Below, one piece after another: positions 2,274-32,000 of a DNA stretch of 32,000 nt (positions are counted from its first letter, which is position 1; the number at the start of each line of letters is the position of its first letter). The DNA lies in the NCBI RefSeq assembly GCF_001997385.1, contig NZ_CP019633.1:2460001-2492000 (forward strand). The letters run 5' to 3'. The notes below the pieces were generated by a model that saw only the letters and a program-made list of their open reading frames with translations, searched no databases and had not been told where the DNA came from. Both the position numbers and the translations under genes were made by a program. The stretch is from Sedimentisphaera cyanobacteriorum (GTDB taxonomy: Bacteria; Planctomycetota; Phycisphaerae; Sedimentisphaerales; Sedimentisphaeraceae).

Positions 2274-2365
2274 ATCTATCCCCGATTTGAACAGCTAAAG
2301 CCTAATACTAAGCTTTTCTTTAAGTTTGGTCAAGCAGGTTTTCTGTTTTAGAAGGCTAAAGCAGG

Positions 2366-2405
2366 AAGGGCAAAGCCGGAATCTGCGGCCTTGCCCTTTT
2401 ATATT
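2366..2405. terminator. GC-rich hairpin 30 nt downstream of the GH2 stop; the T-tract lies on the + strand side
   Basis: Arms AAGGGCAAAGCCG (2366-2378) and CGGCCTTGCCCTT (2386-2398) pair at 12 of 13 positions around a 7-nt loop, followed by TTATATTTTT on the + strand. The position suits termination of the minus-strand GH2 gene (stop at 2429). The U-tract orientation favours + strand termination, so the strand is left undefined. Confidence 0.45.
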
Positions 2406-2428
2406 TTTCATCTGGAAATAAGCTTTGA

Positions 2429-5954: not shown

Positions 5955-8900
5955 CTATTCGTATGATGATGAGCCTGTAAGGCCTACGTAGGTTCTTGAA
6001 CCTACAGCAAGCTCTTTAACGCCCTGAGGCCATATACTCACGGTAATCGAGCTTGAATCAAGCGACTCATCGACACTGTAGCCGAGGCTGTAGAGCAGTC
6101 TGCGGTATCTGCGGATAAGCACAATCTCGCTTCGAACGCTCTGTCCGAAATCGAAATCGTATTCCTGCGCAGCGGTTATTGTGTATCTGGGATTGAGCTT
6201 GTAGCTCATTGCGGTGCGGAAGGAATTCGAACCGTGTTCGTAGTAATAGTCCTGATTATTTGCAGGGGTTTTGTCTATGTCTGTGAGGATAATGTTTTTC
6301 AGGTGCCGGATTCCGAAATACCAGCTCAAATCCGGCCAGCAGTATCTTGCAAGCCCTGCATCAAAACGCTGGAGCTCGCTGGTCTCTAAGTCGTAGTTTG
6401 CGTAGCTGCTGAAGGCGAAGGTGTCCGAGATATTCCAGAGGTAATCAGCATCCACGGTATCTCTCTGGAGAGCGAAGTCTGCCGAGCCTGAACGCCTGTA
6501 GAAGGGTTCATAAGGGCTGCTGAAGATGTATCTGCCCGGGAGGATATTGTCCTGTTCGTCTCTATCGTCTGAGAGAAGAGTTGCGTTTACATCGAGCCTC
6601 ATAAGGTCTTCAGTTCTCAGGTTTTCCTGAGAACCCCGCCTTGTCTGCCATCTCTGGGAGAGGCCGAGATTCAACATATTACGCATTTCCAGCCCGTCTT
6701 CATCGCTCTGGAATACTGCCGCCTCCATGTGCGGTCGGATGTAATGGCGTATTCCGTTAATATCCCAGAAATCGCTTTTCACGAACTGATCTGTCTTCCA
6801 GAACTGCGAGGATAGCCTTATTCCGGCCTCCCCGAGGAAAGCGCCGTTTTCAGGGTCGCTTATCTGGCTTCCGTCCAAATCGGTATCGAAGCCGGTATAG
6901 TCGTTATAGGCATACGTGCCTGCGGCATAGGGTACATACTTCGTTTTGCCCCAGATAAACGGATAGTCTATCTCGTGCCTTGTGCTTGCAGCAGAGAAGA
7001 AACCGCTGCCAACCACAGCAGAATCGCTGTCGTATCTCTGCCTTGCCCGAGAGAGGATGGTATCGCCGTAGTAGGTGAAATTATCATCAAGAATGCTCTG
7101 GCCGGTGCGATGGTATTCAAACGTTGGAAGCTCTTCGAGCTGGTTTTGGAAGTCATTCACGCGTACCTTCCCAAGCACAGAAAATGCCCTGTTGCCCGTG
7201 GAATTTTTGAGGTAGAGCACGCTCTCGGGCTCCTTATCAGTAAAACGTTCACGCCTGTAGAAGCTCTCGAGGAAGTTTCTGTCGGAGAGATAATTCAGCT
7301 CTGCTGAGAACTGCCATCCATCCTCGAGGTATTCTCTGTGCTGGAATTTGAATCTGCCTCGGAGCTCATCTTCCGGCTCGAGGTCTTTGCGCCAGAAACG
7401 GTCTCCCAATCTGTCCTCGCCTGTATCGTGGATTACGTATGATTCAATGCTGCCGAAATAGCTGTCCGATTCGTATTCTGCATCTATCCCGCCTGCGGGG
7501 CCGCGTTTGCTGTAGTAATCGAGATTCAGCGTGGTATCCAGCCCTTCGGGCTCTTTAAAACCAAGCACCCTTGATAGATACCAGTCTGTCTCGAGCGATG
7601 TCCCGAATGCAGTGGAATCGCCTATGTTAATACTCTTTACTGCTAGCTCCGGCCTTTCAAGCCCTGTAATCATTTGGTCTGTTTTCAGCAGGGTATTATC
7701 GTAGTATTTCAGAGAAACGTCTTTCAGCTCAGCGGAAAAGCCGCTGGATGAGGATTTGGCATCCACGTTTGAGTTGTCTGTTATAACAACCGAGGAGGCA
7801 TTAACAGATAGCTGAGGCACTGCAAATTCATCGCTGGAAATCTCCACCCCTTTTGCAGTAAAAACGGAATCGCTCTTTTTCTCAAGCCTCTCAGCTCGTA
7901 TGAAGATTGGGATATTTCGCTCAGGATCGTAGCGTGTCATCTCACTGTTTACCACAAGGGCCTGGGAATTGCGGAAATTGTAGTAGAGCCTGTCTGCCCG
8001 GATTGTGCGAAGGCCTTCGGTGAAAACAATATTGCCTTCGATGTACGCCGATTTGATATCGCCGGTAGCGAGGAGATCTTTTCTGCCTGTTTCCTCCGCT
8101 CCTGCCTTAACTTCTTCCTTCCCGAGAAACAGCACCGCCCTGTCCGCCTGGAACTCGAGTATCCTCCCTGAATCGTCCATCTTGCGCCAGATGTAGAATC
8201 TGCCCATAACGGTTATCACAGACTCACCTTCCGAAATCCTGCTTCTCTCTATTACAGGGGCAGGTTTCCAAAGGGCGGCAACATTTACAGGATAATCTTT
8301 CTCTTCCTGCTGTTTCGCAGATTCATCCGAACCTGCTGCGGCTTCAGCGCTCTTTTCGCTGGCTCTTGATTTCCCGAGAAGCCTTCCAATAATTGATCCG
8401 CCCTTACCCTGTTCTGAAGGCTGCCCGCTTGTTTTCGCTCTTTGAGGTCCTGGGGGAAGGGCTTCACGCTTTAGCTTCAAGCCTTCACGTCTGCCCTTTC
8501 CCGCCTCTGCAGCATTTCTGTAGAGAGCTATCTCAGACGCATTTACTTGCCTGCGCTTACTGCAATCGAGAAACACCTTTCCAGAAACGAAGAAATCAGC
8601 AATCATAGATTTGCCCCGCTCTACAAGGAAATTGTGCACATCTCCAATATTGTGTTTGCCTTCCCTGCCCGCCTTGATCTGGTCTTCAAGATAGCAGCGG
8701 AGCCTGTAGGAATGCGATTCCCTGCCGCGTACCAATTCAGTTTCTTTACGAACCCATACAACCGCCTTCTCGCTGTGGAAGGTGCTGGAGGAATATTCTA
8801 AATCGAAACCCTGCTCGAATATCAGTATCTGGTTTCCATCCTCTGTACGGCTCATCTTTACCGAATCAGAGGATATGTAAATATTCTGACCCGCATTTTC

Positions 8901-8966
8901 TATCTGCCCGTATGCCGAGCAGAATACGAGTAATGAAATTGTCAAAAGTCTCAAATGCAGCAACAT
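5955..8966 (-). CDS. LptD/OstA-like outer-membrane beta-barrel protein (putative LPS-assembly protein)
   Basis: 1003 aa with signal peptide MLLHLRLLTISLLVFCSAYGQ. N-terminal OstA/LptA-like segments are present (e.g. IEGNIVFTEGLRTIRADRLYYNFRNSQALV). A long C-terminal region rich in alternating aromatic/Gly/Asp residues is typical of a large beta-barrel. SD GCAGGAG lies before the ATG. The family call comes from motif pattern only. Confidence 0.55.
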   Translation of the reverse strand: MLLHLRLLTISLLVFCSAYGQIENAGQNIYISSDSVKMSRTEDGNQILIFEQGFDLEYSSSTFHSEKAVVWVRKETELVRGRESHSYRLRCYLEDQIKAGREGKHNIGDVHNFLVERGKSMIADFFVSGKVFLDCSKRRQVNASEIALYRNAAEAGKGRREGLKLKREALPPGPQRAKTSGQPSEQGKGGSIIGRLLGKSRASEKSAEAAAGSDESAKQQEEKDYPVNVAALWKPAPVIERSRISEGESVITVMGRFYIWRKMDDSGRILEFQADRAVLFLGKEEVKAGAEETGRKDLLATGDIKSAYIEGNIVFTEGLRTIRADRLYYNFRNSQALVVNSEMTRYDPERNIPIFIRAERLEKKSDSVFTAKGVEISSDEFAVPQLSVNASSVVITDNSNVDAKSSSSGFSAELKDVSLKYYDNTLLKTDQMITGLERPELAVKSINIGDSTAFGTSLETDWYLSRVLGFKEPEGLDTTLNLDYYSKRGPAGGIDAEYESDSYFGSIESYVIHDTGEDRLGDRFWRKDLEPEDELRGRFKFQHREYLEDGWQFSAELNYLSDRNFLESFYRRERFTDKEPESVLYLKNSTGNRAFSVLGKVRVNDFQNQLEELPTFEYHRTGQSILDDNFTYYGDTILSRARQRYDSDSAVVGSGFFSAASTRHEIDYPFIWGKTKYVPYAAGTYAYNDYTGFDTDLDGSQISDPENGAFLGEAGIRLSSQFWKTDQFVKSDFWDINGIRHYIRPHMEAAVFQSDEDGLEMRNMLNLGLSQRWQTRRGSQENLRTEDLMRLDVNATLLSDDRDEQDNILPGRYIFSSPYEPFYRRSGSADFALQRDTVDADYLWNISDTFAFSSYANYDLETSELQRFDAGLARYCWPDLSWYFGIRHLKNIILTDIDKTPANNQDYYYEHGSNSFRTAMSYKLNPRYTITAAQEYDFDFGQSVRSEIVLIRRYRRLLYSLGYSVDESLDSSSITVSIWPQGVKELAVGSRTYVGLTGSSSYE

Positions 8967-20668: not shown

Positions 20669-20739
20669 GCGGGTGTAGCTCAATGGTAGAGCCCCAGCCT
20701 TCCAAGCTGGCTATGTGGGTTCGATTCCCATCACCCGCT
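20669..20739 (+). tRNA. tRNA-Gly (anticodon UCC)
   Basis: Hand-folded cloverleaf: acceptor GCGGGTG/CACCCGC, D arm GCTC-AATGGTA-GAGC, anticodon arm CCAGC-CTTCCAA-GCTGG, 4-nt variable loop, T arm GTGGG-TTCGATT-CCCAT, discriminator T. No encoded CCA. Confidence 0.95.
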
Positions 20740-21132: not shown

Positions 21133-21206
21133 TGGGCCGTGCAGGACTTGAACCTGCGACCCCCTGCTTGTAAGGCAGGTGCTCTAGCCAACTGAGCTAA
21201 CAGCCC
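21133..21206 (-). tRNA. tRNA-Val (anticodon UAC)
   Basis: The reverse complement folds as acceptor GGGCTGT/ACGGCCC, D arm GCTC-AGTTGGCTA-GAGC, anticodon arm CCTGC-CTTACAA-GCAGG, variable GGGTC, T arm GCAGG-TTCAAGT-CCTGC, discriminator A. No encoded CCA. Confidence 0.95.
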
Positions 21207-21344: not shown

Positions 21345-23627
21345 TTACATCTGAATCTCGCACAGGGCAAGAGAATAAGGCGGAAGCGAATAATATACTG
21401 AATTTGCCGCTTGCAATATTTCCGCTGTTTGAAGGGATGAGCTGTCTCTGGATACATCGCCGTCCTGAGCCTTGAGCAACTTCACATTCGCCGATTGTAT
21501 GGGCGAGCTGTTTTCGATAAGCACCTTTTTCTCCGAGGCGGTTTTATTGAGCAGAACATTGAAGAGCTTGCTTTCATCTTCACTGAAGGCAGAGATGCAC
21601 GGAAGAGCCGAATCGGACGAATCAGATTCCAGAAGCATCTTGCCTAAAACATTATTGAAAAACTTCATCGCCTTGAGAACAGGTCTCGGCTGGAGGGTAT
21701 CGGGGTCTATAAATGCCCTGTCGCCCTGCACAGCAGCCCAAGAGCCCGGCCATCTTGTAGCCATAAACACATTGCCCTTAATAAACTGCATCATCATCTC
21801 GCTTTGAATAAGTGCGGCCTGATAATGAGATCTTTCGATTCTGTTCCATAGAGGCCCGGCATTCCATTCTGAGATTATAACGTCTATCCCATACTCAGAA
21901 TACCGGCTGCGGAAATTGTTTATCTCCTGGTTATAGGGCAGATGTTCGCCCGCCCATTGGGTGTGCTCTGCAGTAATTGGAACATCATTAATGAAATTCT
22001 CCCACGTAGCAAGGTCTTCTGCCGGCGAATCCTTATCGCCCCATCTCCAGTAGCAGTGGAGGTCTGCGTAGTCAACGTTGTGCCCTGCAAGCTCGAAAAA
22101 TTCGTCCCATCTGGGAGCCGAATAAGGGGTATTGAAATGGTTAGACGTGTTTACGATAATCTCAATAGTAGGGTCTATCTGCTTCATGGCGGGAACGAAC
22201 ATATTAACAATATCTGCTAGCTCTTGAGCTGTCATATCGAATGGCTCGTTGCCTATTCGCCAGTATTTGATGTTATAACTGCTGTTTTTGCAGTGCTGCA
22301 CAAGAGCAAGCGTTTCGTCCAATGAATCCTGAATCCGGTTGTATCTCCAGCCGGACTGGAAATTTATCGTAATAAAAGGCTCTGCATCCAGCACATAGCA
22401 CCAGTACCGATAATCATCAATATCCATGGTATGCTCAGACTGGCAAACGCTTTTATCCTCAAAGTAGTAAAATGAATCCGGATCGGTCTCCCAAGAATCT
22501 CTCCAAACAGGTGCGCCGGGGCATTCCTGCCAGTGCCAGCCGGCCTTTGCTGTATCCGGATATCGCAGCACCTCAGCACCCAGCTCGGAAATCCGCTGAG
22601 GGATAATCCCGTCTGACCAGCGCTGGTCATTATCGTAGCAGGTGTTCACGCAAGTCCCGTTGAGGTATGGGCTTATCTGATGGAGCTGATTATCTTTATC
22701 CAGCGTAATTTCTACATCCGATTTCAGGCTCAGCCAGCTCTCAGCAAGCTGCTTTAAGTCTTGAGCTGTAATACTCCCTGAGGCTTCCAAGTCAGCAGTT
22801 TCGGAGAAATTATCGTTATCGTAATCTGCAAGCCAGCATTCGCCTAAATCTGAAAAATCTTCTAAATTAACAGCAAAATCCGCATTCAGATCCGATGGGA
22901 AAGTGTTGATGCTCGTATCGATTATTGTTTTGCCGTTTTCAAGACGAACCTGCACCTCGGCAAGCGGATGGCCTCCATAGGCCGTGATAAAGCCCTCAGC
23001 CTTGAGCTGATTTGCCAAATTCTGCTGATCAGCGTTTATTGTAAGACTGCCTCCTGCAATATTTATCCTGCCCGAGCTGAGCTGTGAATTATCCACCCTG
23101 AGCCAGTTCACCTCTACCGCAGAATCTGCAATAAAAAGATGTCCTGAAGCCTGAGCATCATTTTCGCTTCTGGCAATCCAAAAGGTGCTTCTTATTCTAA
23201 CTGAAGAGCCGTTTTTAACAATCATCCTTCCCGTTTGAGAATTACCGATGTAAAATTTGCCTGCTGCATTGAGTGTGCTGTCTGAAAGCACAAGCTCGGC
23301 GGTTCCGCCTGCCCAGCTTCCTGCGCCTCCCCAGCCGTTAATTTGCAGTGAAGCTGAATTCAGCTGCATTTTGCCATTCTTGAACTTGAAAGCATTGCAG
23401 CAGAGCTCATCTCCGGGTTCTGTTACAGGGCTGGCTGAACCGGCCTGCACATCAATTGAAATATCCTCGCTGCAAATCGGGACGCTGTTTTGTCCCCAGT
23501 TTGCGGGGGTTGTCCATTTATGTCCGCTGCCGCTGTCAGACCACCAGTTATCTGCCAATCCGCCGGCAGGTAAAACCCAAAAGAAAAATGAAATAAAAAA
23601 TATAAATCCGGCACTCTGTTTTTTCAT
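21345..23627 (-). CDS. Secreted multidomain glycoside hydrolase: signal peptide + N-terminal beta-helix-like module + two dockerin-like repeats + clan GH-A (beta/alpha)8 domain (family not assignable by eye)
   Basis: Signal peptide MKKQSAGFIFFISFFFWVLPAGGLA. Residues ~26-240 are homologous to the N-terminus of the adjacent 810-aa ORF. Residues ~245-300 carry two D-x-N/E-x-D/S...D Ca-loop repeats (DLNADFAVNLEDFSDLGECW, DLEASGSITAQDLKQLAESW). The catalytic-type motifs YWRIGNEPF (acid/base) and VIISEWNAGP (nucleophile) are 126 aa apart, followed by a C-terminal beta-sandwich-like tail. Confidence 0.7.
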   Translation of the reverse strand: MKKQSAGFIFFISFFFWVLPAGGLADNWWSDSGSGHKWTTPANWGQNSVPICSEDISIDVQAGSASPVTEPGDELCCNAFKFKNGKMQLNSASLQINGWGGAGSWAGGTAELVLSDSTLNAAGKFYIGNSQTGRMIVKNGSSVRIRSTFWIARSENDAQASGHLFIADSAVEVNWLRVDNSQLSSGRINIAGGSLTINADQQNLANQLKAEGFITAYGGHPLAEVQVRLENGKTIIDTSINTFPSDLNADFAVNLEDFSDLGECWLADYDNDNFSETADLEASGSITAQDLKQLAESWLSLKSDVEITLDKDNQLHQISPYLNGTCVNTCYDNDQRWSDGIIPQRISELGAEVLRYPDTAKAGWHWQECPGAPVWRDSWETDPDSFYYFEDKSVCQSEHTMDIDDYRYWCYVLDAEPFITINFQSGWRYNRIQDSLDETLALVQHCKNSSYNIKYWRIGNEPFDMTAQELADIVNMFVPAMKQIDPTIEIIVNTSNHFNTPYSAPRWDEFFELAGHNVDYADLHCYWRWGDKDSPAEDLATWENFINDVPITAEHTQWAGEHLPYNQEINNFRSRYSEYGIDVIISEWNAGPLWNRIERSHYQAALIQSEMMMQFIKGNVFMATRWPGSWAAVQGDRAFIDPDTLQPRPVLKAMKFFNNVLGKMLLESDSSDSALPCISAFSEDESKLFNVLLNKTASEKKVLIENSSPIQSANVKLLKAQDGDVSRDSSSLQTAEILQAANSVYYSLPPYSLALCEIQM

Positions 23628-23664
23628 AAAAACCCTGAATTAAACGTGAAGCCAGTAATTAATA

Positions 23665-23703
23665 CAAAAAACCTGCACGCCCTGTTTGAAGAAGCGTGCA
23701 AGT
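23665..23703 (-). terminator. Intrinsic terminator between the 810-aa and 760-aa genes
   Basis: The minus strand reads ACTTGCACGC-(13 nt)-GCGTGCAGGT: a 10-bp stem with one G.U pair, running into TTTTTT. It starts about 27 nt after the 810-aa ORF stop. Confidence 0.65.
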
Positions 23704-23729
23704 TTATAAATCAAAATTTGGTTATTTAA

Positions 23730-26162
23730 TCAGTCTTCAAACGGCCAGAGTTTTTCTTCAATCCAGCAGCCGAACATATTGCTCAAATCTGTCAGGTCAA
23801 CTGAATTGTCGTGGTTTTTATCCGCCCAAGAACGAACAGACTGATATACCGAGCTCACTTTTGCAAGATACAGAATTTCCTCATGGCTCAGCGCCCGGTT
23901 ATAGAATCTCAGATCATCTATCCTGCCGCTCCAGCCGGGAATAAGCTCCCAGTTTGTAACATCAATCGGGGTCAGCGGGAAGTAGGCCTGCCTTGCCATC
24001 ATCTCGCCGTTTCTGTATATAAACATCTCGCCAAGATCAGCATTTTTCACAAAGGCATAATGATTCCAGCTTCCCTGCCAGTCTTCAGGGCCTGCCCAGC
24101 CCCAATTGAGCTTGTCGGAGTTCAGGGCAAACTCAACTATATTACCTTCCTTCTGATAAGGCCCAGGCAGAAAAACCCCGCCTGCCCAGCTCGGATTCCT
24201 GAACTTCATAAGATTATTGGCCGATGTCCGGGCTCCTGTATTCCCGTTTACCCAGAGCGAAACAGTAACTTCATCTGTTCCTGCAGCGTTTGGGTCTGAG
24301 AGTCTTTCGGGAACTAATGCCTCTCCGGGGAATTGGAACCATCCGCTTGAAATTGCAGAAAGATCCAAACAGCCCCCTTCCCGGCCGCTTTCCGGGTTCC
24401 AAGCACCAGCTGGCATACTTGTGCCTTTGAATTCTCCGTCTAGCTGATTTGCTGAGGAATCAGAAACGATTTCGCCTTCTGTTTCGTTAAACTTGTATCT
24501 TGCTGTAAGACCTGCCGGCTCGCTTTCAGAAGCTGTTACGATCTGCCCTGTCATTCCCCAGTCGTTAGCAATTACTGAATAATCGCCAAGGTCTGCGATG
24601 CAGTCTGTCCCGCGGAAATCTCCAAGGGCGTATCTGCCAACGCAGCGTTTGGGGTAAACTTGCAGGTCATCAAGGAATATGCTTCCCTCGCCGCATCCGG
24701 TGGCATCAATACCGAGAGTAACGGTTTGAACATCTGTGATATCAACGCCTTCATTTGCAAAGTCAGAGAGCTTTGCATCAAATCCTTTCCACTGATTTGC
24801 CCTGTCTGCGAGCGATGGGCTGTAATGAACTGTTGCTGAGTTGGAGCTGCTGTCTGTTAGAGTTGTTGAAAGCTGAGCGTTCATAGGCAGCTCGCCAAAG
24901 AAGCTTACAGTTATCACTTCACCCTCTCCGAAGGAAAGGCTGCTGAAAGGCAGAACTCTGGATGTCTCAGCGATGCCGTTATTGTACTTCAGCTCAATTG
25001 ACTGCTGGTTTTCTGCAATTACAGAATTAGGGTCTGGGCTGCCAGTCCATACATCTCCCACGGGCGAGCCCTCGTCGTAGCTCTCGAAGTCATCGATAAG
25101 ATTTGATTCAGGAGTGCTGAAGCTCCATACATCCCCCTTCCAAACTTCAGAGGTGTCAGTGTTCACTGAATCCACTCTCCAGAAGTATTCTTCATCAAGG
25201 CTCAGGCCGGACATAGGCCCGTAAGAATAAACAAGATTTGGGTCTGAGTCTGGAGTTTCGAATCTTCCCTGATAAATGTCCATACTTGAAGGGGTGGCCG
25301 CAAATACGTCTTCGTAGTCTGTTCCGAAGTAAACGTCGTGATGTGTTTCGAATTCTCCCGGCTGCCAGTAAAGGGTTAACGGTGAGGTGTAGCTGGAAAG
25401 CAGTTTGGTATCAGCAGGAAGAGGATTGAATACATTCTCCTCAGGCAGCATTGAAGCGGTAATCACAGTGTATGTCCCGTTTTCCACTATGCTGATAGAC
25501 CCTCTCGGATCGCCGCCGTAAGCTGTGAGCAGGCCGTCTTCTATATACTGCTCGAACTTGCTCTTTTTGTAGCCTGAAATTTGAAGCGTGCCTCCGGTGA
25601 CATCCACTGTCCCGCCGTCCTGAATGACGATATCATCCGCTGTTACTGTGCCTCCGTATGCGTTGAGCTCTGCGGTGCCTCCCGAGCTGCTCCAGTCGCC
25701 CGGGACATAAAGACTCCAGTTTACCTCAACTGTTCCGGAATTAACATTCAGCACGCCTCTTGTATCGGCGGACCGGCCAAGGAACAGGGCTTTCTCTGCG
25801 ATGAATGAACCCCCTTGGCTGACTTCGATAGTCCCGTCTGCATCGCTTCCCCAGTTGCCGGCAGTTACGTTGTCGTATGCCTTCAAGCTGCCCTTTACTA
25901 CAAGATAACTCGGCCCCCAGTTTTTCCCGACTAACAAACTTCCGCATTCGAAATCGCCTTCCGGACTCACTTGAGCCCTTGTTTCCCAGCCGGATTTATT
26001 TATTTCCACGGCAGCAGATGAAAAGTCGGGGACTGTGCTTTGCCCCCAGTTATTCGCATTGCCCCAAGACCAGTCATTGTACTCTGCATTAGTCCACCAG
26101 TTGGCCGCATGAACGCTCAAGGCAAAGCAAACAAGCAATGAAAAACTCAAAAAACGTTTCAT
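23730..26162 (-). CDS. Secreted LamG (Laminin_G_3/concanavalin-like) domain protein with shared N-terminal module, Fn3/PKD-like and CBM-like regions and dockerin-like loops; no catalytic motif recognised
   Basis: Signal peptide MKRFLSFSLLVCFALSVHA. Residues 20-237 form the shared module (NWWTNAEYNDWSWGNANNWGQSTVP ... EDGLLTAYGGDP). Residues 255-350 carry the YWQPGE..HDVYFGTD...YFWRVDSV...VWSFST module. Residues 552-765 are LamG-type (LTARYKFNETEGEIVSDSSANQLDGEF...VTVSLWV...HYAFVKN...GRIDDLRFYNRALSHEEI). The Ca-loops are DFRGTDCIADLGDYSVIANDW (aa 515-535) and DKNHDNSVDLTDLSNMFGCW (aa 781-800). Strong AAGGAG SD. Confidence 0.75.
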   Translation of the reverse strand: MKRFLSFSLLVCFALSVHAANWWTNAEYNDWSWGNANNWGQSTVPDFSSAAVEINKSGWETRAQVSPEGDFECGSLLVGKNWGPSYLVVKGSLKAYDNVTAGNWGSDADGTIEVSQGGSFIAEKALFLGRSADTRGVLNVNSGTVEVNWSLYVPGDWSSSGGTAELNAYGGTVTADDIVIQDGGTVDVTGGTLQISGYKKSKFEQYIEDGLLTAYGGDPRGSISIVENGTYTVITASMLPEENVFNPLPADTKLLSSYTSPLTLYWQPGEFETHHDVYFGTDYEDVFAATPSSMDIYQGRFETPDSDPNLVYSYGPMSGLSLDEEYFWRVDSVNTDTSEVWKGDVWSFSTPESNLIDDFESYDEGSPVGDVWTGSPDPNSVIAENQQSIELKYNNGIAETSRVLPFSSLSFGEGEVITVSFFGELPMNAQLSTTLTDSSSNSATVHYSPSLADRANQWKGFDAKLSDFANEGVDITDVQTVTLGIDATGCGEGSIFLDDLQVYPKRCVGRYALGDFRGTDCIADLGDYSVIANDWGMTGQIVTASESEPAGLTARYKFNETEGEIVSDSSANQLDGEFKGTSMPAGAWNPESGREGGCLDLSAISSGWFQFPGEALVPERLSDPNAAGTDEVTVSLWVNGNTGARTSANNLMKFRNPSWAGGVFLPGPYQKEGNIVEFALNSDKLNWGWAGPEDWQGSWNHYAFVKNADLGEMFIYRNGEMMARQAYFPLTPIDVTNWELIPGWSGRIDDLRFYNRALSHEEILYLAKVSSVYQSVRSWADKNHDNSVDLTDLSNMFGCWIEEKLWPFED

Positions 26163-26279: not shown

Positions 26280-29162
26280 TCAATTATGATTAAAAACTGT
26301 CTTCAGCTGTTCAGCAGATAGCTTTTTCTCCGGAGCAAAATTTTCGCTCTGCATATAGTTGAAGATGCTTCTCTTCAGCTGCCTTGCCACAGGCCTTTGC
26401 TCAAGTTCGGAGTTTATATCCATGCAGCATACCAGCACACTGCCTTTTCCTATTTGAGCCTCAAACAGCAGCCCGAGCTTTCTGTTTCTGTGCCAGTCGT
26501 CTATCATCTGGATTGTCGGGAGGAAATCTTGAGGAAGGCCGCTGAGAATCATCGGCTCGCAGTCATTCATCAATTCCCACCACTGCCAGTTTGTATGCAT
26601 GTCTGTGGGAAAATCATTAAAGACAGGATGTTCCGGTCTGCAGAGCATTCCCATTGTGTCTGATTCCCCGCCGTCTGTCCAAGGGCAGTTCCAGTATATG
26701 CTCGGGAAGCACGGTTTCACATCGCCCTTGATATAATCTTTCTTCGCAAGCAGAAGCAGTTTTCCGCCTTCAAGCAGATAGTCCAAATTATCCGAATCAA
26801 GCCTGTTCGTTATTTTGAAATCTTCCGCTTCGGGGATTTGCGGGTTTTCAGGATAAACCCAGAAATCCCAGTTATTGCTTGCCTCAGCTTCAGGTATTCT
26901 AACGCAGATATTGTATTTTGCGGGGGCTTTCAGGCTGGAAAGATCAAGCCTTACTCTCCCAGCCCAGTGGCCATTGCCAACCGGCAGGTCAACCTCCTGA
27001 CACTCTCCGCTTTTGACCATATCGCCCGATTCATTATTTATTTCCCATTTAAGCCGGGTGCTGGATATTGGGTTAGGGCTGAAGTTTGCAGCCTCAAGCT
27101 TTGCATCAAATTTTTCTCCCGTTGTGAACACCCGCTTTTCCATTCTCAGAAGCGGAACAACCGGCGAGCAGAATTTTCGGAATTCTTTTCCGCTGACATA
27201 GCCTTTGGAATCCCAGAAACCGTCGAGAATGCCCACTAACGCCGTGCCCTGGCCGAGGAAATCGTGAATATCCAGAAGCTGGAAGCCCCCGAAATCTTTA
27301 GTTCTAAGGCCTGCTTCGATCTCTTCCTTAAACTGCTTAACCTGCCACTTTCCTGAGGCTTGAACAAAATCATCATTCAGCTCAAGCATACCGCTCTGTT
27401 TGAGCTGGTCTCGAGCGATAATCAAATAGCCCGGCGTAAGGCTGCCGGTGAATTTATCGATGTCATCCACATCAGGATAGCTGCACCTCTGGACAGTTTC
27501 ATGCTGAATAAGCGGTTTGGGATAGAGCGAGGCGATAGTGCTGTAGTCCAGATTGGTATCGGGTTTTCTTGAGGTGAAAAAGCTCGACCCGGGAAGCGGA
27601 GGCCAGCCGCACTGGTATCTGATTCGGAATCGCCGCAGTTCTTCAAGTTCTTGCCATCCGCCTGTGCTTACCGATTTGCCTATATAGTAATCAGTATTAT
27701 CTGAGTTGAATCCGTTGGCATAACCGGTATATAGCCGTCTGCTGTCTTTACGCTTAGACTCCTCCATCAGCTCTTCCATTATCTCTGCCTTCATCCAGCC
27801 CTCATTGCCAACCCCGTAAAAAGTGAATGAGGCGTGATTGCCGTATTCCTTGAGGATCCTTTCCCATTCGGCTTTGATATAAGCTGCTATGTCTGAATCT
27901 CTTCTTTTTATCCCTGCCCAGATATTGCATTCGGGCTGGAGGTATATCCCCGCACGGTCTGCCGCCTTGAAAGCTGCTTCAGGAGGGCACCAAGAATGAA
28001 ATCTTATATGATTGAGGCCGTAGCTTTTGCATTGAGCCATAATCTTATTCCAGTACTCAATATCCATAGACGGATACCCTGTTTTCGGGAAGATGCAGCA
28101 TTCAAGAGTTCCTCGAAGGAAGGTCTTTCTCCCGTTAACGAGGAAACTGCTTCCCTCTGTCTCGATTTTTCTCATCCCGAAAACAACTGTATCGGTTATT
28201 TCTCGACGGCTTTCAAATTTGAGGCTCAATTTCATTCTGTAAAGACTCGGGCTGAATTCATCCCAGAGCAAAACCTCTTCACCCATCGGGAAGCTTACGG
28301 TAATCTCCGGATTTATACTGCCTGCGTTTACAGGGAATGAATGCTGGCCTGTCTTATGTTTTTTTCCTGTATTGAAAGATGATGCGCTGATTTTCAGTTT
28401 GCCATACTCGGATTCCTCAATGCCTGAGACTTTAAGCTTAACCTTGGCGGATTTGTCTTCAACATTCGGATAAACCTGCAAGTCGCTTATCCTCAGCTCC
28501 GGCTTGGCAGAAAGCTCAATAGACCCGATAATCCCGTTCCAGGGGGTTTGGGTGTGATTTGTGATTGAATGGGAGTTTTTGCCTATTGGGTAGAGCATCC
28601 TGTTATCAACTGCTATAGTAATCTGATGCCTTCCTGGGCTCAATTGCTTTGTGCAGTTGTACTTATGGCTCGCTGCAAGGCTGTCGAACTGGCCGAGCTT
28701 CTCAGAATCAATCCATACATGAGAGCGCCAGTGTACCCTTTCGAGATTGAGGAAAATCTCTTTATCTGCCCAGCTCTCGGGGATATCAACCTCTCTTTTG
28801 AACCAAGCCAGCCCCATGTAATGGCGGTCTGGATTGAGGAAATACGGGATCACAATATTCCCCGGCTCGGAATATGCCTCATACATCGGATCGTCCGGCC
28901 ATTTGGGGTAATTCTCGAAATTTACAGATTTGCGCCAGACGAAATCGGTGTCTAAACTGATCTGCTCGCCGTAACCCTGCTCCTGAATAGAGCCGGGCAG
29001 ATGGATTTTCCCTTCAAAGCTTTGATTAAACCAATTTTGTTCTCGGCCTTCATCCTGAGGGTCTAATTTGAACTGCCACTTCCCGCTTAAGTCGATAGAA
29101 GATGCTAAAACTGAAGAAGTTAGCAACAGGGTTGTTAGAATTGAAAAAGTCTTTAAACGCAT
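26280..29162 (-). CDS. Secreted glycoside hydrolase family 2 (GH2) enzyme, paralog of 2429-5671 lacking the discoidin domain
   Basis: Signal peptide MRLKTFSILTTLLLTSSVLAS. It is collinear with the 1080-aa GH2 (IDLSGKWQFKLDPQDEG, LPGSIQEQGYGE, RGTLECCIFPKTGYP, GLNHIRFHSWCPPEAAF, GVGNEGW, IQHETVQR, GGFQLLDIHDF.GQGTAL.GILD.FWDSKGYV). It ends just where the other paralog's CBM32 begins. Confidence 0.8.
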   Translation of the reverse strand: MRLKTFSILTTLLLTSSVLASSIDLSGKWQFKLDPQDEGREQNWFNQSFEGKIHLPGSIQEQGYGEQISLDTDFVWRKSVNFENYPKWPDDPMYEAYSEPGNIVIPYFLNPDRHYMGLAWFKREVDIPESWADKEIFLNLERVHWRSHVWIDSEKLGQFDSLAASHKYNCTKQLSPGRHQITIAVDNRMLYPIGKNSHSITNHTQTPWNGIIGSIELSAKPELRISDLQVYPNVEDKSAKVKLKVSGIEESEYGKLKISASSFNTGKKHKTGQHSFPVNAGSINPEITVSFPMGEEVLLWDEFSPSLYRMKLSLKFESRREITDTVVFGMRKIETEGSSFLVNGRKTFLRGTLECCIFPKTGYPSMDIEYWNKIMAQCKSYGLNHIRFHSWCPPEAAFKAADRAGIYLQPECNIWAGIKRRDSDIAAYIKAEWERILKEYGNHASFTFYGVGNEGWMKAEIMEELMEESKRKDSRRLYTGYANGFNSDNTDYYIGKSVSTGGWQELEELRRFRIRYQCGWPPLPGSSFFTSRKPDTNLDYSTIASLYPKPLIQHETVQRCSYPDVDDIDKFTGSLTPGYLIIARDQLKQSGMLELNDDFVQASGKWQVKQFKEEIEAGLRTKDFGGFQLLDIHDFLGQGTALVGILDGFWDSKGYVSGKEFRKFCSPVVPLLRMEKRVFTTGEKFDAKLEAANFSPNPISSTRLKWEINNESGDMVKSGECQEVDLPVGNGHWAGRVRLDLSSLKAPAKYNICVRIPEAEASNNWDFWVYPENPQIPEAEDFKITNRLDSDNLDYLLEGGKLLLLAKKDYIKGDVKPCFPSIYWNCPWTDGGESDTMGMLCRPEHPVFNDFPTDMHTNWQWWELMNDCEPMILSGLPQDFLPTIQMIDDWHRNRKLGLLFEAQIGKGSVLVCCMDINSELEQRPVARQLKRSIFNYMQSENFAPEKKLSAEQLKTVFNHN

Positions 29163-29352: not shown

Positions 29353-30462
29353 TTATTTTCCGGCCTCTAAAACCGCTTCAAAAGCGGGTTTGGGCTTGCA
29401 GTTTCTATTGAAAAGAAGCGGATAATCCGTTCTGCCCCGCACAGGCCAGTTGTTACGCCATGAGCAGCCGTCGTGTACTCCCCAGAAAGTTATCCGGCTG
29501 AGCTTCCCCGAATTCCGGCTGAACAGTACGAAAAGCTGCTTATACCGCTTCGCGAGCTTTCTGTGCATATTTGCAGGCAGGCCGTTCGGGAAGGGATTGA
29601 TCTCATTTCTCAGCTCATAATTTTGGCTTATATCTGCGCCTCTATGCTCCCAAGCGCTCGGCAGTACAGTCAAATCCAGCTCTGTAATCATAACCTTCAG
29701 CCCGAGGTTCGAAAAGGCATCAATGCTTTTTTGGATTTCAGCAGAAGGTGGATGGCTGAGCCCCCAGTGCCCCTGTATGCCGATGCCGTCTATTCGAATG
29801 CCCTTGCTTTGCAGCTTCTTTGCAAGCTCTGCGGCGGCCTTTCTCTTTTTGCCTCGATACATATTATAATCATTGTAATACAGCTCCGCCTCGGGCGCTG
29901 CCTGATGAGCATATTCAAATGCCTTGGCGATATAATCATCGCCTATAATCTCACGCCATTTCGTATTTCTGAGCGAGCCGTTATCCTCAATCGCCTCGTT
30001 CACGACATCCCAGCCATGCACTTTCCCCTTATACCTGCCTGCAGCCTTGAATATATGCTCCTTCATCCTTTTGAGCAGTTCTTCGCGGCTAACCTCGCTT
30101 CCATCTGCATTTTTGAACACCCAGTCCGGCGTCTGATTATGCCAGATTAGCGTATGGCCCACAACGAACATCGAATTTTCAGCCCCGATGGATGCGTATT
30201 TATCTGCCGGCTCAAAATTGTACTCATCAGGCTCCGGATGTATGCTGCTCCATTTCATCACATTCTCAGGCGTGATGGAATTGAATTGTTCGCGAAGAAG
30301 GCTTACTGCTTTTGGGGAGCGGCCGTAAATCTGGCTTCTGTTTACAGTAGCGCCGATATGAAAATCATCTTTGAAAACGTCTTTCAGACTTGTTAAAGAA
30401 TTTTCCTCAGCTGCAAAGCATAAAGATACTGCTGCAAATAATGCTGCAAACCACAATCTCAT
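29353..30462 (-). CDS. Secreted GH10 endo-1,4-beta-xylanase
   Basis: Signal peptide MRLWFAALFAAVSLCFA. GH10 acid/base motif HGWDVVNEAIED and nucleophile motif KVMITELDLTVL. SD AAGGGAG. Confidence 0.9.
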   Translation of the reverse strand: MRLWFAALFAAVSLCFAAEENSLTSLKDVFKDDFHIGATVNRSQIYGRSPKAVSLLREQFNSITPENVMKWSSIHPEPDEYNFEPADKYASIGAENSMFVVGHTLIWHNQTPDWVFKNADGSEVSREELLKRMKEHIFKAAGRYKGKVHGWDVVNEAIEDNGSLRNTKWREIIGDDYIAKAFEYAHQAAPEAELYYNDYNMYRGKKRKAAAELAKKLQSKGIRIDGIGIQGHWGLSHPPSAEIQKSIDAFSNLGLKVMITELDLTVLPSAWEHRGADISQNYELRNEINPFPNGLPANMHRKLAKRYKQLFVLFSRNSGKLSRITFWGVHDGCSWRNNWPVRGRTDYPLLFNRNCKPKPAFEAVLEAGK

Positions 30463-30570: not shown

Positions 30571-32000
30571 TTATTCGGTTTCGATTTTGGCTTCGAGGAT
30601 TCCTGCGCAGGAGGTCTTTTTCGGGTTTACCACAATCCTCATTGCCTCGCACTCTTTTACCTCTGCTGGATGGACTGTGTTGAATGAATCCTCAATCACG
30701 CTGTAGGAATCTGTCAGGTACGGCTCCATCTTCTCCCAGCTTCCGCTGATTTTTCGCTCGATATGCCAGCTTGCAGGAAGCTGCACGCCGCCGCCGCCGT
30801 TGTAGAAATAAAGCCCAGCAGACGAAACTTTCTGGGTCTCATCGAAGCTGTAGGTGATTGTCTGGGACTTACCCCTTCTCGGCCAGCTCGTCCAGCGCGG
30901 GATGCTTCTGTCGCTTGAAGACTCTGGAATCTTCCCGTCGCTAACAGCTTCCGCTTCATCTCCGCGATACGTATAGCTCGCTTCGATAATGCCCATATTG
31001 CTTATAAAGGCGTTTTCGCTCATTGCGGCCTTCCTTGCTCCCTGCTTGGTCTGGGCGAACCATACAGTCATACTCGTTCTCGGATTGCGGTTGTTCCAAA
31101 CGTTGTAAGGAGTAAGCACCACCTGCCTGATATCAGGGCTATTGTATTTGCGAGCAGGCAAGACGATCTTCTTATTGCCCGCAAGCATTCCGTTTTTAAT
31201 CTCAAGCACCTTCCCGGCAGCGCTGGTTTGGGTCAGATAGAAATTCTGAACCTTGCCTTTGCCGTTATCCGGCTCTTCGGCGCAGTAAACTATCGGGCCG
31301 CGCTCCACGGCCGCCTTGCCGATATTCGCTTCCACCTTATCTATGCAGTCAACGTATCGCACGGGCATATCCATAAACAGCTCCACGCTGTCTCCCCTTT
31401 GCCATTTGCGCTTTATAACTGCATATCCCTTCTGCATTTCCGGCTCAATTACCCTGCCGTTTACTGATATATTCCAGCTTGGCTTGATATTGTCTATGTA
31501 GCTGTAGAGTCCGCCCGGGGCGGGCTTGTTTCTGCACCAGCCCGGGATGCGAACCATAAGCCTGAATTCTCTCTGCTGCTCCGGCGAAACCTCTATCTCC
31601 ACTTCGCCGTTCCATGGGTATTCTGTTTTCTGCTTCAGCTCCACATCCACTGAATCAAGCGATACATTCGCATCGCTCTTGCCAAACAGATTCACATACA
31701 AATCATCGTTTCGCACTGCATATACATACCCGGGGACTGATGCCATAAAGCGGGTTATGTTTGTAGGGCAGCATGCGCAGCCGAACCAAGGCGAACGGGA
31801 GTAGCTGCCCTGCGATTCGAGCGGGTTTGGATAGAAGAATTCGTCGCCGTCAAGCGATACCCCGCTCACTGTACTGTTGTACAGCGTTCGCTCAAGCACG
31901 TCTATATATTTCGAATCTCCGTGCAGGAGGAACATCCTGTGATTGAGCATTACAAACGCCACCTGCGCGCAGGTTTCGCAGTACGCGCTTTCGTTGGGCA
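30571..32000 (-). CDS. GH127 beta-L-arabinofuranosidase-like protein (DUF1680), C-terminal ~475 aa with extra discoidin-like C-terminal domain; N-terminus beyond window
   Basis: The reading frame stays open to base 32000 (...PNESAYCETCAQVAFVMLNH...). The Cys-rich GH127 signatures YCETCA and WFGCACCPTNITRF are present. The last ~130 aa are jelly-roll/discoidin-like (IPRWTSWPRRGKSQTITYSF...AMRIVVNPKKTSCAGILEAKIE). Confidence 0.8.
   Translation of the reverse strand, partial: PNESAYCETCAQVAFVMLNHRMFLLHGDSKYIDVLERTLYNSTVSGVSLDGDEFFYPNPLESQGSYSRSPWFGCACCPTNITRFMASVPGYVYAVRNDDLYVNLFGKSDANVSLDSVDVELKQKTEYPWNGEVEIEVSPEQQREFRLMVRIPGWCRNKPAPGGLYSYIDNIKPSWNISVNGRVIEPEMQKGYAVIKRKWQRGDSVELFMDMPVRYVDCIDKVEANIGKAAVERGPIVYCAEEPDNGKGKVQNFYLTQTSAAGKVLEIKNGMLAGNKKIVLPARKYNSPDIRQVVLTPYNVWNNRNPRTSMTVWFAQTKQGARKAAMSENAFISNMGIIEASYTYRGDEAEAVSDGKIPESSSDRSIPRWTSWPRRGKSQTITYSFDETQKVSSAGLYFYNGGGGVQLPASWHIERKISGSWEKMEPYLTDSYSVIEDSFNTVHPAEVKECEAMRIVVNPKKTSCAGILEAKIETE

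Follow-up and report, generated by a model that had tools for sequence, protein, structure and literature searches.

The question raised by this locus is whether two adjacent genes of Sedimentisphaera cyanobacteriorum (Phycisphaerae, Planctomycetota) encode a dedicated two-component system, as a preliminary description had proposed in reading them as an enzyme and a binding partner that share one private module for targeting or anchoring at the cell surface. The window (the whole stretch of DNA that was analysed, 32,000 nucleotides) does contain the two open reading frames of 760 and 810 aa on which that description was built, here called ORF760 and ORF810, which are both 100% identical to S. 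cyanobacteriorum proteins, together with three further genes for carbohydrate-active enzymes:

21345-23627, minus strand: ORF760, 760 aa
23730-26162, minus strand: ORF810, 810 aa
26280-29162, minus strand: GH2-like gene, upstream of ORF810 on the same strand (Pfam)
29353-30462, minus strand: GH10 gene, upstream on the same strand (Pfam)
30571-31962, minus strand: GH127 gene, upstream on the same strand, its ORF cut by the window end (Pfam)

The cluster order is GH127, GH10, GH2-like, ORF810, ORF760, such that the two proteins of interest are encoded by the final two genes, and the identical five-gene order in S. salicampi indicates that the cluster is kept within the genus. The GH2-like protein scores 982 bits, below the cutoff, against the NCBIfam model for BT4151-type exo-beta-1,4-galactosidases, and degradation of xylan, pectin, beta-galactan and arabinan is commonly predicted for Sedimentisphaerales (PMC11266412). 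The locus had been placed outside the Sus paradigm, and we agree, as no TonB-dependent receptor or SusD family protein accompanies the CAZymes in any window ORF scanned. Among the large window ORFs scanned against Pfam, there was likewise no cohesin match.

The features of ORF760 are as follows:

23556..23627, minus strand: signal peptide, aa 1-24, MKKQSAGFIFFISFFFWVLPAGGLA followed by D, read by eye from the translation
22908..23555, minus strand: capped beta-solenoid module, aa 25-240 (family HMM envelope aa 28-235)
22728..22895, minus strand: contiguous dockerin-like module, aa 245-300, two F-hand loops (Pfam Dockerin_1)
21708..22610, minus strand: predicted GH51-like (clan GH-A) catalytic barrel, aa ~340-640 (phmmer against PDB)
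21348..21707, minus strand: C-terminal region, aa 641-760, presumed to fold as a beta-sandwich as in GH51

Those of ORF810 are:

26106..26162, minus strand: signal peptide, aa 1-19, MKRFLSFSLLVCFALSVHA followed by A, read by eye from the translation
25452..26105, minus strand: capped beta-solenoid module, aa 20-237 (HMM envelope aa 22-232)
24648..25415, minus strand: Fn3-like region (aa 250-352, HDVYFGT...YFWRVD) and CBM-like beta-sandwich (aa 353-505, DDFESY...)
24552..24647, minus strand: dockerin half 1, aa 506-537, RC507..D515FRGTDC521IADLGD527YSVIANDW (alignment A3)
23847..24521, minus strand: LamG, aa ~548-772, between the dockerin halves (Pfam, Foldseek)
23733..23831, minus strand: dockerin half 2, aa 778-810, D781KNHDNSVDLTD792LSNMFGCWIEEKLWP, at the extreme C-terminus

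Both N-termini look to the eye like the Sec signal peptides described for them, with MKK/MKR starts, a hydrophobic core, and GLA and VHA ends (followed by D and A, respectively); in ORF760, the n-region is charged, the site is A-x-A-like, and there is no lipobox Cys. Pfam and NCBIfam scans found neither a PEP-CTERM signal nor a translocator beta-barrel in either protein, the latter as the preliminary description had stated, and the known envelope-binding motifs (SLH, LysM, PEP-CTERM, lipobox, barrel) are absent from both.

The shared N-terminal module of ~215 aa that had been noticed is clearly homologous between the two proteins. BLASTP with compositional adjustment aligns ORF760 aa 11-246 with ORF810 aa 4-251 at 25% identity (E=3e-11), and the Smith-Waterman score of ORF760 aa 26-240 against ORF810 aa 20-237 is 151, versus 40 ± 7 (maximum 69) for 1000 composition-preserving shuffles (z=15.6). 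Downstream of the module, the two proteins have nothing in common by BLASTP, so the claim of complete divergence beyond this point also holds. The module opens directly after the signal peptide with a Trp-rich N-cap (W-x8-W-x4-NW-x4-VP), continues through four or five coils of ~24 aa each of the type G-x-G-x-L-x-M-x-GG-x-V, includes one helix, and has an "ITAYGG...TVTA" hairpin cap; both caps are in register across 15 aligned module sequences. The AlphaFold2 model of the ORF760 module is an all-beta solenoid (pLDDT 94.6, pTM 0.90) with ~17 strands, one helix and a terminal hairpin, in agreement with its earlier characterization as beta-helix-like.

Foldseek returned no significant match of the module model in the PDB (best E=0.36, TM<=0.42), and 4peu is absent from its top 50 matches. 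In an hmmsearch, positions 68-199 of the module profile match PDB 4peu/4phb, which we take to be Cthe_2159, at E=3.9e-7 and 33 bits (bias 9.4), and hhalign gives a probability of 94.8% over 82 columns for 4peu. Cthe_2159 binds cellulosic and pectic substrates (PMC6712302; PMC8746771). Homology to 4peu is nevertheless not proven, because the matching region is repetitive: the likeness is confined to three or four coils, themselves repetitive and compositionally biased, and could reflect convergence. Pfam matches to module members are faint (PF14262, AIDA and G8), with PF14262 found in 2 of 15 at E>=0.012. The W-rich start had also been likened to that of PATR proteins, a likeness that the profiles do not support, since PF12951 has no match at E<=1 in ORF760, ORF810 or the 15 module members, and TIGR02601 matches one of the 15 at E=0.17.

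Nor is the module private to this pair, as had been supposed. The two copies are 22-25% identical and no closer to each other than to copies from other organisms, and profile A1 matches 15,434, 4,468 and 446 cluster representatives at E<=1e-3, 1e-10 and 1e-30, respectively, where the largest count takes in generic long beta-helix repeat proteins with 10-28 partial stretches per protein. All named family members belong to Phycisphaerae or other Planctomycetota, and in a subfamily scan, which yielded 58 loci and several per genome, nearly every title names Sedimentisphaerales, Phycisphaerae or other Planctomycetota. The module lacks a Pfam or NCBIfam model and, judged by sequence profiles, forms a very large, still unnamed family centred on Planctomycetota. 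At least one complete capped copy is present in 89 of the 159 module-bearing proteins fetched; the module also occurs internally and in tandem, as a complete stand-alone protein of 273 aa, and in fusions with LamG, Fn3-like, CBM_4_9, GH16, GxGYxYP, peptidase M60, F5/8-C, Calx-beta, BNR/sialidase and Metallophos domains.

Turning to the parts that differ, ORF760 had been assigned a clan GH-A catalytic domain, and its PDB matches support this, being exclusively GH51 arabinofuranosidases (phmmer, nine sequences, E 4e-7 to 7e-3, and 4e-7 to 8e-7 for the matches over aa ~343-607), with "RIGNE" of ORF760 aligned on the GH51 acid/base "LGNE" ("ikywriGNE" vs "ikvwclGNE"). The candidate nucleophile, in IISEWN, is assigned by motif only because the GH51 alignment is out of register there, "FDEWNVW" of AbfA being offset from "ISEWNAG" of ORF760 in the 1pz3 alignment. 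The GenBank name is alpha-L-arabinofuranosidase, the NCBIfam ArfA score of 33.5 bits is far below the 625-bit cutoff, and an indexed search returned only one homologue. Between the two Sedimentisphaera species, the GH region is 92% identical, and the C-terminal region (aa 641-760), which matches no Pfam profile, is the least conserved part (67%). Homology makes ORF760 a GH51-like alpha-L-arabinofuranosidase, though a very divergent one.

ORF810 is a non-catalytic lectin-type protein made up of Fn3-like, beta-sandwich and LamG domains, in accord with the initial view, which saw no catalytic motif in it. The LamG domain proposed for it stands: aa 621-763 match Laminin_G_3 (PF13385) with 50.7 bits against a cutoff of 27.6, and Foldseek matches it to AbnA domain 4, a trans-sialidase lectin and neurotoxin Hc-N domains (E 1e-9 to 1e-6), with E 8e-9, a TM-score of 0.74 normalised to the target and 22% identity for AbnA domain 4 (5hon_A). 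The Fn3-like and CBM-like labels, however, come from the secondary structure of the model and from the Pfam labels of homologues (PF16656 and PF02018), as aa 250-505 of ORF810 itself have no Pfam match; these regions show beta-sandwich secondary structure at pLDDT ~70-90 in a medium-confidence model (whole-protein AF2 pLDDT 69, pTM 0.49), and are exactly shared by most of the 488 homologues.

The dockerin repeats ascribed to both proteins are borne out as Ca loops in each, with a borderline profile match in ORF760. The two F-hand loops of ORF760 fit D/N at positions 1, 3, 5, 9 and 12, the first canonical (D246-L-N-A-D-F-A-V-N-L-E-D257) and the second partly degenerate (D279-L-E-A-S-G-S-I-T-A-Q-D290). 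Dockerin_1 (PF00404; gathering score 22.9 bits) scores 19.7 bits (E 1e-3) against the whole protein and 25.0 bits (E 2.2e-5, profile 2-52 of 57) against aa 237-309 scanned alone, and phmmer gives weak matches to the PDB dockerins 2b59_B, 3kcp_A and 2y3n_B. In ORF810, the loops D515..D527 and D781-x-N-x-D-x3-D-x2-D792 lie ~244 aa apart and, as previously observed, flank the LamG domain; Dockerin_1 matches neither the full protein nor its artificially spliced halves. Splicing the halves of ORF810-type homologues does give matches to Dockerin_1 (positions 2-52, 16.2-32.5 bits).

The conserved half-1 segment (RCV..D[FL]x[GD][DN]CxV[DN]xxD..A..WL in alignment A3) corresponds to F-hand 1 in those relatives of ORF810 whose C-terminal dockerin is contiguous, and the half-2 segment, ..(I/V)NFxDYAxLxxxWLxExLWP, ends <=10 aa from the C-terminus in 53 of 62 proteins. 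The spacing of the halves among these relatives is bimodal, either 3-19 aa or 198-261 aa with a LamG in between, and a LamG of ~200-260 aa is nested in this way in ORF810 and ~41 relatives; alignment A3 also reveals a conserved extra Cys pair. At the level of the family, the LamG-split dockerin is real, and we found no description of such an architecture in the literature. In ORF810, the two segments and their helices (aa 525-534 and aa 790-804) are present in the model, and their joining into one dockerin fold is putative.

ORF760 and ORF810 are, then, modular glycan-degrading proteins of a kind ordinary among planctomycetes, and two of their details are undescribed: the large unnamed beta-helix module family and the LamG-interrupted dockerin. 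As an explanation of the whole, we lean towards the pair being a product of domain shuffling with a non-catalytic binding or adhesion module, and not a dedicated two-component system. The beta-helix module would most likely be an autonomous unit whose binding, to a polysaccharide or to the glycan surface of the cell itself, would hold the attached domains on substrate or cell. Capture of an arabinose- or galactose-rich polymer would fall to ORF810, with its LamG and beta-sandwich domains, and the trimming of arabinofuranosyl side chains to ORF760; further breakdown would be the work of the GH10, GH2-like and GH127 enzymes. The dockerin modules may dock to some partner or act as Ca-stabilised clasps. 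We note that the N-terminal bias of the module and its association with dockerins would also fit an anchoring role.

It is unlikely, by comparison, that the module is a targeting device or cell-surface anchor common to an enzyme and its binding partner, making the two a dedicated surface pair for glycan capture and degradation. This reading draws on the fact that the module immediately follows the signal peptide in ORF760 and ORF810 alike, a position that recurs among complete family copies (75 of 129 start <=60 aa from the N-terminus), on the adjacency of the two genes, which is kept within the genus, and on the statistical association of the module with dockerin-like segments (11/13 vs 21/107 in the ORF810 set, Fisher p=6e-6), although the latter is confounded by shared architecture. 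The module is also highly conserved between S. cyanobacteriorum and S. salicampi, at 84% identity in ORF760 and 91% in ORF810, where it is the most conserved domain; these values are similar to or above those of most other domains, with only the ORF760 GH region higher. A tag that links this enzyme to this partner is, however, hard to reconcile with a widespread family whose members are as close to either copy as the copies are to each other, with the internal, tandem and stand-alone copies, and with the lack of any known envelope-binding motif. Moreover, the pairing is not kept outside Sedimentisphaera: adjacent module genes occur in only 2 of the 58 related loci, and P0005, the nearest full-length ORF810 relative outside the genus, has no GH51 neighbour.

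We consider it improbable that the module descends from the beta-helix stalks of T5SS or PEP-CTERM surface adhesins as a short, capped remnant, serving mainly as a rigid spacer or an autochaperone-like folding nucleus in secreted multidomain proteins and binding no ligand. TIGR04393 weakly matches 6 of the 15 module members (best E=1e-4; 15.8 bits and E 0.011 for the ORF760 module), the top, non-significant Foldseek matches are autotransporter passengers and the IcsA autochaperone, the family search collects giant proteins with 10-28 partial matches, and the positions conserved best (Trp cap, Gly turns, ITAYGG) suggest a structural role more than a binding site. All TIGR04393 scores are, however, sub-threshold (below the 23-bit cutoff), and neither protein has the barrel or PEP-CTERM signal of such adhesins, while the existence of stand-alone module proteins and the 84-91% interspecies conservation argue for a function of the module's own.

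Very doubtful, too, is a docking system peculiar to Phycisphaerae, in which dockerin-type modules, including the LamG-nested form, would bind a non-cohesin receptor, possibly the beta-helix module; if true, enzyme-lectin complexes would self-assemble on the cell surface as a "planctosome" for polysaccharides. The specific version in which the module itself is the dockerin receptor, a functional analogue of cohesin that builds head-to-tail or "planctosome"-like complexes, is highly improbable. A dockerin-like segment accompanies the module in 40 of 144 proteins, besides the enrichment in the ORF810 set, none of 51 scanned module proteins has a cohesin domain, and a cohesin/dockerin "planctosome" has been proposed for freshwater planctomycetes, the Nemodlikiaceae (PMC6461901). 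This evidence is purely correlative, however, 72% of module proteins have no dockerin-like segment, and real cohesins exist in the same order, in the Coh2-Doc1-Coh1 protein of Limihaloglobus sulfuriphilus, the sole PVC-superphylum case named in a survey of 305,693 genomes (PMC11557425). Finally, an origin of the N-terminal similarity in chance or low complexity, as the repetitive Gly/Thr/Ser-rich composition and the HMMER bias term in the PDB match might suggest, is refuted for practical purposes by the compositionally adjusted BLASTP and shuffle results, the caps in register in 15 sequences and the confident fold prediction.

Compared with known systems, the Cthe_2159 family (PF14262; polysaccharide-lyase-like beta-helix), marked by a right-handed three-faced beta-helix fold and Ca-dependent binding of cellulose and pectate, provides the solved structure closest to the module by sequence. 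Both have "GG-x-(I/V)" coil repeats, and both are found in proteins that polysaccharide degraders secrete (PMC6712302). The module, at ~215 aa, is the shorter of the two and is centred on Planctomycetota; nothing in the aligned region corresponds to its Trp-rich N-cap or its ITAYGG/TVTA C-cap. TIGR04393, PATR and autotransporter passengers have a similar coil repeat, and giant multi-coil surface proteins are also collected by the module family search, but instead of an open-ended repeat array the module forms a short unit bounded by defined caps, and ORF760 and ORF810 differ from autotransporters in their missing barrel and PEP-CTERM signal and in profile scores that are all below cutoff.

With type I dockerins (PF00404), ORF760 and ORF810 share two F-hand loops that read D-x-[ND]-x-[DN]-x3-[DN]-x2-D, with a helix that ends in W-L after each, and relatives of ORF810 carry the same halves contiguously at the C-terminus, one of them (P0091) labelled PF00404. 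Unlike cellulosomal dockerins, these occur in a Gram-negative-type planctomycete without a known scaffoldin, that of ORF760 sitting between beta-helix and catalytic domain and that of ORF810 enclosing a LamG and carrying the extra Cys pair. The "planctosome" and Limihaloglobus proteins are likewise dockerin-bearing, secreted, planctomycetal and outside the cellulosome model, but those proposals rest on identified cohesins, with peptidases or non-CAZymes as partners. A Sus-like PUL of Bacteroidota is defined by a SusC/SusD pair next to the CAZymes, and none of the scanned window ORFs encodes one.

The GH51 enzymes AbfA (1pz3) and Araf51 (2c7f) share with ORF760 the aligned acid/base GNE and the clan GH-A style motif of a hydrophobic strand plus EWN, at a best E of only ~4e-7 and an ArfA score far below cutoff; unlike ORF760, an extracellular protein of several domains, the top GH51 matches are named "intracellular" in their PDB entries. 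For the ORF810 LamG, modelled with medium confidence, the single domain that matches best in structure is domain 4 of the GH43 arabinanase AbnA (5hon), a likeness that fits the arabinose-oriented gene cluster. In AbnA this domain belongs to the enzyme, whereas in ORF810 the LamG sits inside a dockerin in a separate non-catalytic protein.

The window comes from the Sedimentisphaera cyanobacteriorum chromosome (Phycisphaerae, Planctomycetota), and the two ORFs of interest lie where the preliminary description had placed them. The 760-aa protein (ORF760) and the 810-aa protein (ORF810) are 100% identical to the S. cyanobacteriorum proteins annotated as "Alpha-L-arabinofuranosidase" and "hypothetical protein L21SP3_01987 / LamG-like", respectively, and each begins, as judged by eye, with a type-I Sec signal peptide without a lipobox. 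Their genes are the final two of a same-strand run, the five-gene order of which (GH127, GH10, GH2-like, ORF810, ORF760) is also present in S. salicampi, and the end of this glycoside-hydrolase cluster is marked by two tRNA genes:

30571-31962 (-), GH127 gene, cut by the window end; first of the run
29353-30462 (-), GH10 gene; second of the run
26280-29162 (-), GH2-like gene; third of the run
23730-26162 (-), ORF810; one of the final two genes of the run
21345-23627 (-), ORF760; the other of the final two genes
21708-22610 (-), glycoside hydrolase (GH) domain of ORF760, with nearest solved relatives in GH51
21133-21206 (-), tRNA-Val(tac), in the 0.8-kb gap directly downstream of ORF760
20669-20739 (+), tRNA-Gly(tcc), in the same gap

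The best NCBIfam match of the GH2-like gene is NF049890 (BT4151-type exo-beta-1,4-galactosidase), at 982 bits, below the cutoff of 1500. The same model is the best match (1096 bits vs the 1500 cutoff) of a paralogous second GH2-like gene at 2429-5671(-), which additionally carries a C-terminal F5/8-type-C domain and adjoins a candidate glycan-gene regulator at 1107-2273(-), comprising a periplasmic-binding-protein-like sugar sensor and an AraC-type HTH. We note also a 1003-aa ORF at 5955-8966(-), which has a signal-peptide-like N-terminus, no Pfam, NCBIfam or PDB-sequence match, and a long C-terminal part that appears beta-rich by eye; it could be an LptD-like outer-membrane protein. Upstream of the five conserved cluster genes, S. 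salicampi has a gene (locus L059, 1-218(-)) with a faint PEP-CTERM (PF07589) match, and PEP-CTERM sorting may therefore operate in the genus. Promoter and terminator scans were uninformative (13 terminators found vs 10.8 expected).

ORF760 and ORF810 had been described as sharing an N-terminal module of about 215 aa and diverging completely beyond it, and both points hold: BLASTP aligns ORF760 aa 11-246 with ORF810 aa 4-251 (25% identity, E=3e-11) and no other part of the two proteins, which are the only ORFs in the window with the module. In an alignment of 15 module sequences, the ORF760 copy is 22% identical to that of ORF810, and shares 27% and 26% identity with two copies found in other organisms. 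As copies elsewhere are as close or closer, the pair does not stem from a recent local duplication, and we reject recent tandem duplication as an explanation for the shared module (at 22-25% identity, its two copies are not more similar than unrelated family members). Between the two Sedimentisphaera species the module is 84% (ORF760) and 91% (ORF810) identical and is thus under purifying selection; it is the best-conserved domain of ORF810, and in ORF760 only the GH region (92%) exceeds it.

The 15-sequence alignment delimits a conserved N-cap (W-x8-W-x4-NW-x4-VP), coils with Gly-rich turns (G-x-G-x-L-x-M-x-GG-x-V) and a C-terminal element (ITAYGG ... T-V-T-A), and no Pfam or NCBIfam model covers the module in ORF760, ORF810 or any of the 15 members. 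Among the ORF810 homologues, 15 proteins carry the module, some of them with one to three additional internal coils (module length then 220-320 aa), which is typical solenoid behavior. In agreement with the beta-helix-like nature proposed earlier, AlphaFold2 predicts an all-beta repeat structure for the ORF760 module (pLDDT 94.6, pTM 0.90), in which the beta repeats give way to a single helix (module residues 178-186) and then to a hairpin at the end. The module had been considered private to the two proteins, which is clearly not the case, since a profile built from this alignment matches 15,434 of 1.84 billion cluster representatives at E<=1e-3, 4,468 at E<=1e-10 and 446 at E<=1e-30. The weaker matches include giant proteins with 10-28 partial matches each, which are generic beta-helix repeat proteins. 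When the ORF760 module alone was the query, a word-indexed search for homologues returned no match, which reflects a limit of the index rather than absence, and a scan of genome contigs with the alignment of the two modules yielded 67 matching stretches, all of them unrelated. The named module proteins belong to Sedimentisphaerales, Phycisphaerae or other Planctomycetota; likewise, the titles of nearly all 58 loci found by a subfamily scan of species-representative genomes (up to three per genome) read Sedimentisphaerales, Phycisphaerae, Planctomycetota or "Pirellulales". Of 159 fetched module proteins, 89 contain one or more complete capped copies, and 31 contain two to four. Fusion partners in the 51 members scanned comprise LamG (13), Fn3-like Pur_ac_phosph_N, CBM_4_9, F5/8-type-C, GH16, GxGYxYP, peptidase M60, Calx-beta, BNR/sialidase, Metallophos, PKD and one T9SS tail.

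Behind the module, the catalytic domain proposed for ORF760 is supported by aa 343-607, the sole PDB matches of which are GH51 arabinofuranosidases (E about 4e-7). Their acid/base motif aligns with "RIGNE", and "IISEWN" is the presumed nucleophile by motif alone, the GH51 alignment being out of register there. An indexed search of 5.8 billion proteins returned a single homologue of ORF760, the S. salicampi orthologue, so that ORF760 represents a very divergent lineage; a pattern scan of metagenomes for the GH domain gave no match. The domain may represent either a deep subfamily of GH51 or a lineage sister to it. ORF810 instead carries predicted beta-sandwiches at aa 250-505, a region common to hundreds of planctomycete proteins, and a Laminin_G_3 domain, the best single-domain structural match of which is domain 4 of the GH43 arabinanase AbnA (5hon_A, E 8e-9, TM 0.74, from a medium-confidence ORF810 model with pLDDT 69).

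Both proteins also carry dockerin-type segments. In ORF760, two F-hand loops lie at aa 245-300, and the Dockerin_1 score rises from 19.7 bits for the full-length protein to 25.0 when this region is scanned alone (cutoff 22.9). In ORF810 the loops are indeed split around LamG: one F-hand lies directly behind the beta-sandwich (aa 506-537), the other at the very C-terminus (aa 778-810), and a helix is predicted after each. When spliced in silico, the ORF810 halves do not match Dockerin_1; the spliced halves of five homologues of the same architecture cover Dockerin_1 positions 2-52 at 16 to 32.5 bits. Half-specific HMMs find both halves in 62 proteins, with a bimodal gap between them: about 10 of the 62 have gaps of 3-19 aa and are ordinary contiguous C-terminal dockerins (e.g., P0060, P0076, P0091 and P0159) carrying the same "RCV...NCVVD...WL" and "...DLKDYA...WL.E.LWP" sequences, and 41 have gaps of 198-261 aa occupied by LamG. 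The second half ends 10 residues or fewer from the C-terminus in 53 of these proteins. The simplest reading of these sequences is that a LamG domain would have been inserted in the linker of a C-terminal dockerin, and such an insertion would be feasible, as the two ends of a LamG domain are near each other. We also observe a Cys pair, C507 and C521 in ORF810 (24552-24647(-)), which is conserved in nearly all dockerin first halves of this family, with "RC" behind the beta-sandwich and "[DN]C" within the first Ca loop; it probably forms a disulfide that has no counterpart in classical dockerins.

As to the proposed pair of enzyme and binding partner, adjacency is kept within the genus (S. salicampi) and lost beyond it. 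We reject a conserved two-gene system outside the genus, as module genes stand side by side at only 2 of the 58 subfamily loci, and the closest full-length ORF810 relative outside the genus lies between genes for a sulfatase and a pseudopilin-like protein. As a system, the gene pair is ordinary.

ORF760 and ORF810 are a modular enzyme and lectin-type protein of a glycan-degradation cluster, signal-peptide-bearing by eye, and each combines a beta-solenoid of a large unnamed family with a dockerin-type module. Foldseek found no significant PDB match for the module model; the sole solved structure matched by the module profile is 4peu/4phb (E=3.9e-7; 94.8% probability in hhalign), which we take to be Cthe_2159, in agreement with the faint PF14262 matches of the module family and with the papers on this protein. 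They describe Cthe_2159 as a beta-helical protein that has cellulosic and pectic substrates as ligands and requires Ca2+ to recognize them (PMC6712302, PMC8746771). We consider the chances somewhat better than even that the module serves binding or adhesion as an autonomous domain without catalytic activity, and that ORF810 would bind an arabinose- or galactose-rich polymer, which ORF760 would debranch and the GH10, GH2-like and GH127 enzymes would break down further.

The preliminary description had the module as a cell-surface anchor, which we regard as unlikely. The N-terminal position of the module would fit this role, 75 of 129 complete copies beginning within the first 60 residues; against it, a stand-alone module exists as a complete 273-aa gene (2254-3096(-) of its locus, L060; HMM E=5e-13 over its full length), on the strand opposite to the gene for an ORF810-like protein, P0005, and about 2 kb away from it. 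That the module is a structural spacer, or a folding nucleus, descended from the stalks of adhesins seems quite improbable. Of the 15 members of the module alignment, 6 give sub-threshold matches to the T5SS/PEP-CTERM-associated repeat TIGR04393; the suggested resemblance to PATR repeats was not borne out (no PF12951 match, TIGR02601 once at E=0.17). That the module is a cohesin-analogue receptor for the dockerins we judge very improbable. In its favor, module and dockerin-like segments co-occur above expectation in an ORF810-derived set (11/13 vs 21/107, Fisher p=6e-6), and no cohesin occurs among the 51 scanned module proteins; against it, that set is biased by overall architecture, and 28% of proteins found via the module alone have a dockerin-like segment. 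Finally, chance similarity is refuted by a composition-preserving shuffle control (n=1000), in which aa 26-240 of ORF760 and 20-237 of ORF810 give a Smith-Waterman score of 151 vs 40 ± 7 (maximum 69, z=15.6).

Apart from its proposed binding role, the module is a delimited, capped beta-solenoid of about 215 aa with a confident predicted fold and thousands of clusters by profile. Planctomycetota, and Phycisphaerae especially, are major anaerobic polysaccharide degraders, most large secreted proteins of which are annotated just "LamG domain-containing" or "hypothetical", and a family model for the module would improve the annotation of many proteins. To our knowledge, the role of planctomycete dockerins has long been unexplained, and it would become approachable by experiment if the ORF810 halves still form a dockerin.

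In a survey of 305,693 genomes, the sole PVC organism named with a multi-cohesin protein is Limihaloglobus sulfuriphilus, of the same order (PMC11557425), and for a different group of planctomycetes, the Nemodlikiaceae, a cohesin/dockerin "planctosome" has been put forward (PMC6461901). The genes described here are already in public annotation, and their general nature is that of ordinary modular planctomycete carbohydrate-active proteins. A full-text literature search found no report of split or interrupted dockerins or of the LamG-nested arrangement, and, within the resources searched, both this arrangement and the beta-solenoid family appear undescribed; should its halves still form a dockerin, the former would be a new way to present a lectin domain on a docking module.
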